Below are positions 15,001-18,000 of a stretch of 38,298 bases of DNA, piece after piece; within the stretch, counting starts at the first letter, position 1; each line of letters begins with the position of its first letter. The position numbers were made by a program. The DNA lies in NCBI GenBank assembly GCA_963646605.1, contig CAVIWQ010000001.1, positions 15,936 to 54,233 of the forward strand, written 5' to 3'. This DNA comes from Bacteroidaceae bacterium (GTDB lineage Bacteria > Pseudomonadota > Alphaproteobacteria > RF32 > CAG-239).

Positions 15001-18000
15001 GGCGCCTGTTTCCCGATGGGCATGTCTATGATGGAAAAGGAGTTTCTGCCGGTCGTATGTATGGCGATGGAATGAGCTTTTTCAATCACAGACTCGGACA
15101 TCAGGCGCCATACGGTCAAGTTGCTGATTTTTCAGGAAAAGTGGTTGGTATGGCAGGATATAACAGCGATGTTATCAATCGTTTTGGCGAAAGATTGGGT
15201 AAGTTGGATGCAAAAGGTTTTTATTTTGATACCAAAGGCGTGTTAAGAGGCGGTCTTATTAAGCGCGGTGCTGCAATCGGCTATGACGGAGCTTTTCTCG
15301 GTTATAGTTTATCAGACGGCAAAATTATTGATCTTGATGGCAAAAATGTCGGCCGCAGTACGCCTGACGGTAAAGTTTTGAATAACAAATCGGTTATTGT
15401 CGGCGAGGTTATTCCTGAAGAAATTGTTCTTGATGTTTGGGGAACATATAAAGGGCATATGAATTCTTTGGGGGATATTATTGATTTGAACGGGAAAAAT
15501 ATTACGGCAATTCTGCCTGGAGGCTCAACAGATAAGAATTTGAGTTTACTCAGACGCGGCGCTGTAATTGATTTTAGCGGAAAAGTTATCGGTACTGTTG
15601 CGCCTGATGGTTCGGTCAATGATGTCCTTAACATAAAAATAGGCAGAACGCTTCCTGACGGAAATGTCTTAAATACATCCGGCAAGCTTATAGGTGAAGT
15701 GGTTGACGGCGATCTGGTTATTGACGGCAATGACAAAGTTGTCGGATATATAGGTTTTGACGGTTCCGTTCAAGACAATACAGGAGCGGTTGTCGGACAT
15801 ACATTGTCGACAGATTTAGCTGTTGACGGCAATGACGGAATTTTGGGGCGCATTTATAAAATAGGCGCAACAGTTTTGGGCAATACGGGCAGATATGTTG
15901 GTCGTTTGACGGCAAACGGTTCTGTTATCGATACTGAAAACAAAATTATAGGATATCTAAAAAGCAACGGTTCGTTTATTAACTTAGATAAAAGAGTTGC
16001 AGGATATGCCCTTCAGGAAGTTGCTAAAAATCGGAGGAACTAACAGTGAATTTAAAATTCAAAATCACTAAATTTTTCAGTGTTGCCGCAATGGCTTTGT
16101 TTTCATGCCTAGGTTATGCCGAAGCACAGGAAATTACAGCTATTGACTTTAATGGTGATTTGATAGGAAAAGTAATTCCTGATGGAAAAGTTGTTAGTTT
16201 TGAAAATCAACTTGTCGGCAATATTACGGCAGACAGTTTGATTGTCGATTTTGACGGGCGCTTAATTGGTGGTGTTGTTCCTCAGGGAATAGCCATTGGC
16301 AATGATAACCGTATGCTTGGCAAAGTTAATAATGATGGAACCGTGCGTCTTTCTACAGGAAAAATTATAGGTAAAGTGCTGCCTAACGGATTGGTAGTTG
16401 ACGATAAATTTGACATATTGGGCGCCGTACTTTTTCCGGGGTTGATTTATGCCGATGATGGGCAGACAATGGGGCGTTTGACCGGTGACGGCATGTATGC
16501 AAATTTGCAGGGACAGACGATAGGTTTTGTTTCTCCTGATGGTTATGCTTATCGCCGTACCGGAAATGATTATACTTTGGAAGGAAGATTGATTTCTTCA
16601 AAAATGGTAATAGATTCTGTCGGCCGTTTTGTCGGCAGCATAGCCCCTGGCGGAAAAATTACAGATTTTGACGGTAAAAATATCGGTGTGATACATGCAA
16701 ACGGCTTTGCTTATAATGATGAAGGAAAAGTTATAGGCAGTGTTGTCCGTTCTGGCTATGCCTTTGATATTGCCGGAAATTATATAGGTTTGGTTACTTT
16801 TAACGGTGAAGTTATCAATAATGAAAAATTGATAGGCTATTTGCAGGTTGACGGCAGCATTGCCGACACCGGCGGCAATACAATAGGTTTTATGGCCGAT
16901 ATTGCCGCAACGGCGTCAGATAATTCCGGAAAATATTTGGGACGTATAATGCCGGAAGGAAAGATTGCCAAAGGCAGAAATATCATTGGACGCTTAGGTC
17001 CTTGGAATATTGTTTATGATTTGGAAGGAAAACAAATCGGTAAAGAGATTGTTTCAGGTCCTATCTTTGATTATCGCGGTTCACTCCGTGCCCATGCGTT
17101 AAAAAATGGACAAGTTATACTTCCGGGAGGCACTCCTTTGGGAACAATGCGCGGTAATTTCGCTGTTAATGCTGCAGGACGCGTTGTCGGTTCGGTGCTG
17201 CGCAATCAGGTTATAATAAACGCAAATAACCAATCCGGAGGTGTAACGGGCATTAATTCTGTTGTTGTAAACGGAGATGACCGCCGAATAGTTTCGCCTT
17301 TCGGTTATGTTTATAATCCTGAAGGCGGTATTGACGGAACAACAGTGGCTTTGGGAAGTGTTTTCGGATTGGGAGGAGCCCCGCTTGCTACAATTTCTCC
17401 TAATGGTGAATTGTTAAATAAAGGAGCCGTTCAACAGGGAAAAATTACTCAATATGGTATAGATATTGATGAAAGAAATGCCGTTTTGGGCGGAAATATT
17501 AAAGCTGTTTACGCTGTTAATGAACGAGGGACAGATATAGGAACGTTGGCAGACGGTAATCAAATATTGGATAAGAATCTAAAGCCAATGGCTAAAATTT
17601 TGCCGGATATGAGCGTTGCTTCGTCTTATAATGATGTAACTTCGTATATGCCGGTTGTCGGACGCGCTTCCGCTAACCAAATTGCTTTGGGGTATGACGG
17701 CGTGCTGTTAGGCTATGTTAACGACAGAGGCTTAGTAAAAGACGCGGGAGCGGCAACGGTCGGAAAAGTAAATTCCGATGGAATTGTTTATGATAACACG
17801 GGAGTAGCAATCGGCGAAACTGCTGGTTTTGTCCCTGTTATCAATAATAAATGCGAATTTATGGGGGTTGTTACGCCTTCCGGCGAAGTTAAAAATTACA
17901 GAGAAGTCACTATGGGTAAATTGCTGCCTAACGGCGATGTGATTTCAGAAAGCGGAAGCGTTGTCGGATTTGCAATTAAAACAGGCAGTGTAGCTGATTT

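Follow-up and report, generated by a model that had tools for sequence, protein, structure and literature searches.

The stretch of DNA analysed here, called the window throughout, comprises 38,298 nucleotides (nt) of a genome assembly filed as Bacteroidaceae bacterium and placed by GTDB in the alphaproteobacterial lineage RF32, CAG-239 (GenBank GCA_963646605.1, contig CAVIWQ010000001.1, positions 15,936 to 54,233 of the forward strand). It carries a tightly packed operon for a type IV secretion system (T4SS) on the forward strand, in the order VirB8, VirB7-like lipoprotein, VirB8, VirB9/CagX, ORF1, ORF2 and VirB11-type ATPase, and this order is common to 12 related loci. The two large open reading frames (ORFs) placed between virB9 and virB11 are the subject of this report; together they appear to supply the parts of a VirB10 protein that has been divided between two genes. 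The genes of the operon, with lengths in amino acids (aa), are as follows.

7864-8619 (+): VirB8 homologue, first copy (Pfam VirB8, 1.2e-16)
8720-8908 (+): VirB7-like 62-aa lipoprotein (MAKKLVLLLIIVLLSGC...), from its lipobox LLSGC and its position
8931-9656 (+): VirB8 homologue, second copy (Pfam VirB8, 8.2e-24)
9658-11343 (+): VirB9/CagX homologue (Pfam CagX, 2.3e-11), overlapping the start of ORF1 by 4 nt
11340-16043 (+): ORF1, 1567 aa, candidate N-terminal (inner-membrane) half of a split VirB10 (translation, homology, conservation)
16046-20407 (+): ORF2, 1453 aa, candidate C-terminal (outer-membrane) half of a split VirB10 (translation; Pfam TrbI and Bflower)
20420-21388 (+): VirB11-type ATPase (Pfam T2SSE, 6.5e-20)

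Two genes in the VirB10 position

The two ORFs and their junction divide into eleven segments, for which structure predictions are given with their predicted local distance difference test score (pLDDT).

11340-11393 (+): conserved cytoplasmic tail, ORF1 residues 1-18, MSKEVLTHSESYIKKTNR
11394-11456 (+): transmembrane (TM) helix, ORF1 residues 19-39, IILAVGITSFVIFILGLYLLF (19-residue Kyte-Doolittle windows and AlphaFold)
11592-11915 (+): periplasmic ASH/PapD-like beta-sandwich, ORF1 residues 85-192 (AlphaFold, pLDDT 79-89)
12006-16010 (+): beta-flower array of ORF1, residues 223-1557 (Pfam Bflower_2 1.8e-111, Bflower 6.8e-55, DUF3659 1.1e-50)
16011-16043 (+): ORF1 tail LQEVAKNRRN and stop, invariant in 12 loci
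16033-16038 (+): Shine-Dalgarno sequence GGAGGA for ORF2, inside the last ORF1 codons
16046-16126 (+): Sec-type signal peptide, ORF2 residues 1-27, with predicted signal peptidase I cleavage after AEA27 (pattern of 53 presequences)
16127-19165 (+): beta-flower array of ORF2, residues 28-1040 (Pfam; conservation profile)
19166-19453 (+): Gly-rich linker before the barrel, ORF2 residues 1041-1136 (20% Gly, not Pro-rich)
19454-20029 (+): VirB10/TrbI beta-barrel, ORF2 residues 1137-1328 (Pfam PF03743, 1.5e-34, above cut-off)
20030-20407 (+): low-complexity Ser/Ala/Gly/Pro tail, ORF2 residues 1329-1453, ending ...VPQLF, plus stop

The barrel of ORF2 matches the structures of ComB10 (2bhv, 4.6e-22), TrwE (6.1e-11), CagY (5.4e-9 to 1.1e-7) and TraF, and the NCBIfam models for ComB10 (1.3e-33) and VirB10 (7.7e-29), both below their equivalog cut-offs. 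In a first protein search, homologues of 1,418-1,767 aa were found in more than 100 clusters, all with the Bflower and TrbI architecture of ORF2. Names found in the databases among the matches include 'TrbI/VirB10 family protein', 'DUF3659 domain-containing protein', 'hypothetical protein', 'conjugation trbI family protein' and 'cOMB3'. A terminal hexamer [SDG]VPQLF is found in 131 of 141 split-type homologues, and a hydrophobic-aromatic pair also ends most of the single-chain giants described below (…KMF, …ELF, …LY); the terminal ...VPQLF might be a docking or sorting motif.

Ahead of the barrel, and over most of ORF1, the proteins consist of repeats of the beta-flower fold (Pfam PF21784/PF21785/PF21786, clan CL0395), which received its name in 2023 on the basis of AlphaFold models and is without a known function (Durairaj et al. 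2023, PMC10584680). Both ORFs contain short beta-hairpins in tandem, tipped by a [DNEQ]xxG motif, and match the Bflower hidden Markov models (HMMs), and structure models of both show regular short beta-hairpins. Each chain holds 10-13 beta-flowers. Bflower_2 (PF21785) occurs in 15 stretches of the ORF1 array, which is about 1,340 aa long, and in 8 stretches of ORF2 (2.6e-60). The first ~150 mature residues of ORF2 (26-175) are its best-conserved part, at 80-93%, above the barrel. Orthologues of ORF1 range in length from 1137 to 1832 aa, with insertions and deletions falling within residues ~400-800 of the window's ORF1 and residues 800-1567 conserved. The regular part of the ORF1 array (12540-13740, forward strand) grows and shrinks between orthologues (L002-L013). 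In the databases ORF1 is represented chiefly by fragments from contig ends, at most 400 aa long, and therefore the repeats evidently break metagenome assemblies.

ORF2 starts with a GTG codon at 16046, and a longer N-terminus is impossible because a TAA at 16025-16027 shuts its frame upstream. The translation begins (M)NLKFKITKFFSVAAMALFSCLGYAEA and continues past the predicted cleavage site with QEITAIDF; the presequence has three Lys in its n-region, an h-region of about 15 residues, and AEA at positions -3 to -1. We compared 53 distinct presequences taken from the homologue clusters of the first search. Position -1 is Ala or Ser in every one, and position -3 is Ala or Val in 51, while agreement at the remaining positions is just 16-44%. 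The median presequence length is 30 residues, and the charge ahead of the hydrophobic run is net positive in 49 of the 53. In the mature proteins, positions +2 to +10 and +14 to +24 are invariant (+11, 96%; +13, 94%), and this block is kept even between proteins with an overall identity of 43-50%. Residues 1-25 of ORF2 are 27% conserved (0.27 identity) versus 0.93 for the 25 residues that follow. This pattern is the signature expected of a signal peptide cleaved by signal peptidase I, not of a functional tail with a membrane anchor, and ORF2 would be exported via Sec and cleaved after A27. It is not a lipoprotein signal, because Cys is not conserved: 19 of the 53 presequences have none, and two give a lipobox-like match. 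A lipoprotein reading of 'LFSC' in the window's own presequence was ruled out on the same ground. No remnant hairpin was found in the other frames of the DNA coding for the signal peptide.

Since a type II anchor likewise consists of a positive n-region and a hydrophobic stretch, and cleavage is here a prediction, ORF2 might instead begin with an uncleaved signal anchor and still be bitopic, with a very short cytoplasmic tail. We consider this very unlikely. The hydrophobic core is about 15 residues long, and no 19-residue Kyte-Doolittle window of ORF2 reaches 1.6 (the maximum is 1.49). Small residues are held at -3 and -1 in 51-53 of the 53 presequences while the rest drifts, which fits selection by signal peptidase I, and several homologues have presequences of just 11-20 residues, some of them perhaps through truncated gene calls. 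The genuine tail and TM helix of ORF1, moreover, are 89% conserved.

That helix is the one strong TM segment of ORF1, with a 19-residue Kyte-Doolittle maximum of 2.63 over residues 15-42, and AlphaFold places a helix at residues 8-40 (pLDDT 92-95). The cytoplasmic tail ahead of it carries the motif LTHSExY[VI][KR]KTNR, kept in about 70 N-termini of ORF1 orthologues; a related motif is also found in the single-chain forms and in P0261, a VirB10 relative of canonical size. Among nine full-length orthologues residues 1-50 of ORF1 are 89% conserved, versus 27% for the ORF2 presequence at comparable divergence. A model of residues 1-330 (alignment of 30 sequences, mean pLDDT 74) shows a disordered acidic/Pro/Thr linker at 54-79, the beta-sandwich at 85-192, a second disordered stretch at 201-220, and hairpin repeats from 223 onward; the linker after the TM helix, taken over residues 39-95, is rich in Thr, Asp, Pro and Glu (Pro 12%). 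Foldseek matches the sandwich to CEP192 (6fvi, 1.4e-6), HYDIN (2e6j) and the Vibrio proteases VesC and VesB (6bqm, 4lk4), and it has weak matches to Pfam ASH and NCBIfam choice-of-anchor D.

An HMM of this N-terminal module matches the N-termini of flower-less VirB10 proteins of 580-610 aa (P0271, 3.7e-9; P0296, 4.9e-9) and that of P0261 (2.4e-7), which has the tail motif STSESFVKRSERR, a TM helix and a Pro-rich linker. Because it finds canonical-size VirB10 N-termini in this way, the N-terminus of ORF1 is a genuine VirB10 N-terminus. An ASH/PapD-like domain is present at the equivalent position in P0271, P0296 and P0261, and therefore marks a VirB10 subfamily, not the flower-bearing forms alone.

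The two genes meet with a gap of 2 nt between the ORF1 stop and the ORF2 start. Twelve independent loci (the window, L001-L010 and L013) have an ORF2 homologue that starts shortly after the end of an ORF1 homologue, and the embedded Shine-Dalgarno sequence is kept in all 12. The stop codons vary among TAA, TGA and TAG and the start codons among GTG, TTG and ATG; the presequence is of the signal peptide type in every locus but different in sequence each time, and the identity of the proteins falls to ~48%. To judge from these sequences, ORF1 and ORF2 are translationally coupled. The two-gene state is not a sequencing error, because it is conserved in 12 independent loci. More broadly, one might suppose an artefact, a gene lately broken by a nonsense or frameshift mutation, or programmed -1 frameshifting that yields a single chain after all, given that the frame of ORF2 is -1 with respect to that of ORF1 and that an A-rich stretch (GCT AAA AAT) stands ahead of the stop. 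However, that stretch does not match the canonical slippery heptamer X XXY YYZ, the -1 frame opens no earlier than 16028, and both genes are under obvious purifying selection. The junction is alike in 12 independent assemblies whose proteins are down to ~48% identical, with differing stop and start codons and a signal peptide always present. We regard all such readings as extremely improbable, and those that invoke error or a pseudogene as already contradicted by the loci compared.

The initial annotation of the window had described ORF2 as a VirB10 homologue that starts with a cleavable-looking Sec signal peptide and has no Pro-rich linker ahead of its barrel, and had seen a VirB10-like topology (tail, TM helix, repeat) at the N-terminus of ORF1. 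The n- and h-regions, the A-E-A motif and the pattern across 53 presequences bear out the first point; the second is essentially correct, ORF2 residues 1040-1136 being 20% Gly; and the third agrees with the hydropathy maximum of 2.63 and the AlphaFold helix at 8-40. It had also allowed that a sequencing error might have broken a single gene, which the two-gene state of the 12 loci contradicts.

Single-chain relatives and the direction of change

The ORF2 barrel was searched against cluster representatives, and then one match was searched back. This yielded more than 80 clusters of single-chain proteins, 2,100-2,600 aa long, in which an ORF1-like N-terminus is followed by a beta-flower array and, at the C-terminus, by a TrbI domain. 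Residues 1-230 of ORF1, when used as the query, returned only contig-end fragments of at most 400 aa and no TrbI-containing protein. The single-chain N-termini carry 'SSSEQY[VI]KKSNR' followed by a TM helix and an ASH domain (example, MSERLSSSEQYAKKSNRRLLLMGLGLLVLFIVALILM). In the two genomic contexts inspected (L011 and L012), VirB8, a small lipoprotein, VirB8, VirB9, the giant VirB10 and VirB11 follow one another, an order that matches the window, except that a single gene takes the place of ORF1 and ORF2.

Both ends of the single-chain proteins correspond to the two ORFs. Residues 1-205 of ORF1 are colinear with residues 1-205 of the single-chain proteins in 15 of 17 tested (E from 5e-26 to 1e-10), and in the other two ORF1 matches over the C-terminal part of the N-module only (2e-8 and 9e-4). 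The C-terminus of ORF2 aligns with the single-chain C-termini at E values of 1e-44 to 1e-64. In profile-profile alignment (hhalign), ORF1 2-1549 falls on residues 1-1720 of the fused form and ORF2 31-1337 on residues 770-2247. Single-chain giants such as P0221 (2363 aa), P0341 (2202 aa) and P0399 (2213 aa) are thus like the window in slot, N-module, array, TrbI barrel and C-terminal end. They differ from it in being one ORF without an internal stop or signal peptide, in running on as a continuous chain ('...LRPWGLV.DF.G...') at about residue 359, the counterpart of the mature N-terminus of ORF2, and in having a total array about 650 aa shorter than that of ORF1 and ORF2 together.

The direction of change was considered with a neighbour-joining (NJ) tree of the barrel domain and 200 bootstrap replicates. 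Proteins of the signal peptide (split) type were monophyletic in 90% of the replicates, and the single-chain flower proteins in 2%. One fission is the parsimonious direction, because the split forms have a single origin and the single-chain outgroups share the N-module. The opposite course, in which two genes are ancestral and the 2,100-2,600-aa proteins arose by gene fusion, can appeal to the deep branching of the flower-bearing VirB10s, which has no bootstrap resolution. It is very improbable nonetheless: flower-less VirB10s of canonical size already hold the tail motif, TM helix and ASH domain on the barrel chain, the split forms make one clade (90%) and the fused forms do not (2%), and a fusion would have required precise deletion of the signal peptide and the tail.

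The position of the break can be placed on the fused proteins. When the first 70 mature residues of ORF2 are made into an HMM, its best match in most single-chain proteins lies at ~359-425, with up to 62 bits versus at most 48 elsewhere, and in the reverse search fused residues 355-425 match ORF2 32-98 at 64.7 bits versus at most 49 for other parts of ORF1 and ORF2. By these reciprocal best matches the N-terminal unit of the ORF2 array is the orthologue of residues ~359-425 in the single-chain homologues. The two regions share the non-consensus landmark 'I.F.GD.IG..(P)DG...G.LIGGV.PQG.A.G' (EITAIDFNGDLIGKVIPDG…GRLIGGVVPQGIAIG in ORF2; WGLVINFTGDIIGGVLPDG…GELIGGVIPQGVAVG in the fused form). ORF2 28-330 is colinear with fused 359-654 (hhalign score 324 versus 291). 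Since fused residues 205-360 are colinear with ORF1 223-378, and ORF2 starts at about 359, ORF1 from ~380 to 1567 is "extra", without a colinear counterpart in the single-chain proteins. The break was probably accompanied by expansion of the array or by an internal duplication, to judge from these alignments.

The initial annotation had held that the last ~500 residues of ORF1 carry repeats closest to the start of ORF2, and had proposed either the split of an ancestral giant VirB10 or the duplication of a repeat module. The first of these claims fared unevenly. In Smith-Waterman comparisons of 100-aa windows, the N-terminal windows of ORF2 scored best against ORF1 226-376 and not against the ORF1 C-terminus, in a test biased by the tendency of consensus-like units to draw every other unit to themselves. 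Plain BLASTP of ORF1 against ORF2 gave eleven alignments at ~25% identity, most of them ~750-1,090 residues long and in differing registers. In profile-profile comparison, on the other hand, ORF1 1000-1567 takes the start of the ORF2 array as its best register, with a modest preference (374 versus at most 333). The claim is therefore weakly supported, and the preference would agree with an internal duplication at whose junction the break then arose. An HMM built from the 70 C-terminal residues of ORF1 had no unique best place in the fused proteins (19-39 bits at several), and because of this the idea that the end of ORF1 adjoined the start of ORF2 in the ancestral protein is unsupported. As for the second claim, the split draws support from the fused relatives, for which the initial annotation had suggested looking in related genomes and which now number more than 80 clusters, with two contexts in the matching slot; the choice between split and duplication may have been put too simply.

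Possible reassembly of the halves, and the surrounding genes

Taken together, these results make it probable that ORF1 and ORF2 are the products of one fission of a giant beta-flower VirB10, which took place in the ancestral lineage of a gut alphaproteobacterial clade resembling 'Azospirillum sp. CAG:239'; the two halves may re-associate. On this account ORF1 would retain the ancestral N-module, consisting of the cytoplasmic tail, the single TM helix, the disordered acidic/Pro/Thr linker and the ASH/PapD-like domain, and would project its ~1,340-aa beta-flower array into the periplasm. ORF2, with its new Sec signal peptide predicted to be cleaved, would be exported whole to the periplasm. Its TrbI barrel would join VirB9 and VirB7 in the outer-membrane core complex, with the ~1,000-aa flower array hanging below. 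The halves may then re-associate non-covalently, through the flower arrays or through the conserved C-terminal tail of ORF1 and the mature N-terminus of ORF2, and so restore the bridge between inner and outer membrane that a single-chain VirB10 provides.

Several observations weigh against this account, besides the predicted status of the cleavage discussed above. The deep nodes of the NJ tree are without bootstrap support, and polarity is read from parsimony and the architecture of the outgroups; the basal placement of the fused proteins P0258 and P0260, with bootstrap values of 0-2%, is a point estimate that is not robust. The combined arrays exceed the single-chain array by ~650 aa, and a simple bisection is insufficient to explain them. 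Whole-array profile alignment of ORF1 against ORF2 produced five registers with scores within 669-658, none of them privileged. An AlphaFold model of a chimera of the ORF1 C-terminus and the mature ORF2 N-terminus, built on an unpaired alignment, reached a pLDDT of 68.6 and a predicted TM-score (pTM) of 0.38; the junction residues LQEVAKNRRNQ have pLDDT values below 50 and are predicted to be disordered, and there are no readable contacts between the parts. In this model the first ORF2 strand begins two residues past the predicted cleavage site. We take the chimera as no evidence either way on a domain shared between the halves. Finally, neither VirB4 nor VirD4 was recognised in the window by Pfam and NCBIfam scans.

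Some of these same points would suit a different outcome, in which the gene did split but its products stay apart, the barrel being left untethered and ORF1 acting as an independent, periplasm-spanning accessory protein like the DotF-type bitopic partners. The disordered junction of the chimera offers no evidence for a shared domain, the arrays have no privileged register, and distant VirB10 relatives with lipoprotein signal peptides demonstrate that barrels without a TM helix exist. We nevertheless think this outcome unlikely. Co-occurrence, adjacency and translational coupling are strict in 12 of 12 loci; the best-conserved segments adjoin the break or are close to it (the ORF1 tail, and ORF2 +2 to +10 and +14 to +24) and exceed the barrel in conservation; and ORF1 retains the cytoplasmic tail motif of the single-chain VirB10s. 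That covalent continuity of VirB10 across the periplasm is dispensable, with the separate halves re-associating as a natural two-component version of the protein, is a reading to which we would give even chances.

The nearest genome to that of the window is an uncultured human-gut 'Azospirillum sp.' metagenome-assembled genome (MAG), UMGS418, at 97% identity. Further relatives are MAGs filed as 'Alphaproteobacteria bacterium' from ruminant and human gut, and one homologue cluster carries a name from 'Azospirillum sp. CAG:239'. The order VirB8-B7-B8-B9-B10-B11 is reminiscent of the Rickettsiales rvh cluster. The 62-aa lipoprotein is a putative VirB7, identified by its position and lipobox, and a gene of 60-69 aa stands at the equivalent place in L009-L013. 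The VirB9/CagX homologue has a SPOR (peptidoglycan-binding) domain at its C-terminus (residues 480-559; Pfam 1.8e-4, barely above cut-off), an unusual addition for a VirB9.

Elsewhere in the window are large ORFs around the T4SS genes that have no Pfam or NCBIfam match (1305, 843, 884 and 717 aa; also 572, 230 and 461 aa). The 326-aa protein with two HTH_3 domains listed below lies downstream on the opposite strand in split-type loci, and is also present in L009 and L013; it is a possible regulator of the cluster.

129-3918 (+): large-ORF span
3931-7848 (+): large-ORF span
24315-26468 (-): large-ORF span
26533-27513 (-): 326-aa protein with two HTH_3 (Cro/C1-type) domains
27670-30603 (-): M23-peptidase protein, 977 aa
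30616-33270 (-): large-ORF span
33291-34610 (-): TrbL/VirB6 homologue
34635-37166 (-): large-ORF span

Comparison with known systems

Canonical VirB10/TrbI proteins (VirB10 of A. tumefaciens, TrwE of R388, TraF of pKM101 and ComB10 of H. pylori) have in common the C-terminal TrbI barrel and a gene between virB9 and virB11. Jointly, ORF1 and ORF2 reproduce the canonical layout of a short cytoplasmic tail, one TM helix, a linker and the barrel. They depart from it in four respects. Anchor and barrel are on two polypeptides, with the tail and TM helix on ORF1 instead of the barrel chain, and the barrel protein begins with a Sec signal peptide of the cleavable type. About 2,350 aa of beta-flowers and an ASH domain take the place of the ~100-aa Pro-rich region, and there is an extra low-complexity C-terminal tail of 125 aa.

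Large repeats N-terminal to a VirB10 barrel are known from CagY of the H. pylori Cag T4SS and from DotG of the Legionella Dot/Icm system, which has a repeat region of this kind. Both systems are T4SSs that translocate effectors, and in their long repeats the two proteins are like those of the window. Unlike them, CagY and DotG are single polypeptides, and their repeats are unrelated to the beta-flower. To our knowledge, no fission of CagY or DotG into an anchor gene and a barrel gene with a signal peptide has been reported. Our literature searches on the T4SS of RF32/CAG-239, on VirB10 with DUF3659 and on split VirB10 found no description in the searchable literature.

The published beta-flowers are small stand-alone domains, often on lipoproteins (PMC10584680), whereas those of the window are strung together inside a core subunit of a T4SS, and the fold is thereby placed in a defined machine. 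According to a 2025 review, no T4SS subunit other than VirB10 makes a physical link between the inner-membrane complex and the outer-membrane core, and VirB10 is also a sensor of ATP energy that gates the outer-membrane pore (PMC12857230). A clade in which VirB10 is stably cut is an experiment of nature on the need for a continuous chain in signal transmission. The split clade spans proteins ~48% identical, and uncut orthologues in sister lineages allow direct comparison. If the halves do re-associate, the window would hold a two-component form of the sole T4SS subunit thought to bridge both membranes, and would provide the beta-flower fold with a functional context for the first time, as a modular scaffold spanning the periplasm. 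The searches also reveal a large unannotated family of VirB10 proteins, 1,400-2,600 aa long, in uncultured Alphaproteobacteria of the human and ruminant gut.

Barrels that reach the periplasm through a cleavable signal also occur outside this family. Of the 150 nearest VirB10 representatives 12 match a lipobox pattern, and eleven have clear lipoprotein signal peptide starts (…LAAC, …VAAC, …LTAC): P0276, P0292, P0297, P0303, P0311, P0316, P0327, P0330, P0331, P0335 and P0340. These relatives, 514-627 aa long, resemble ORF2 in having a barrel without an N-terminal TM helix and in entering the periplasm by way of a cleavable signal. They differ from it in that the signal is of the signal peptidase II (lipobox) type, in having no flowers and in being distant from the split clade. 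Because they exist, a VirB10 barrel without a TM helix is not unique to the split clade; what is new here is a fission in which the anchor is retained on the neighbouring gene.

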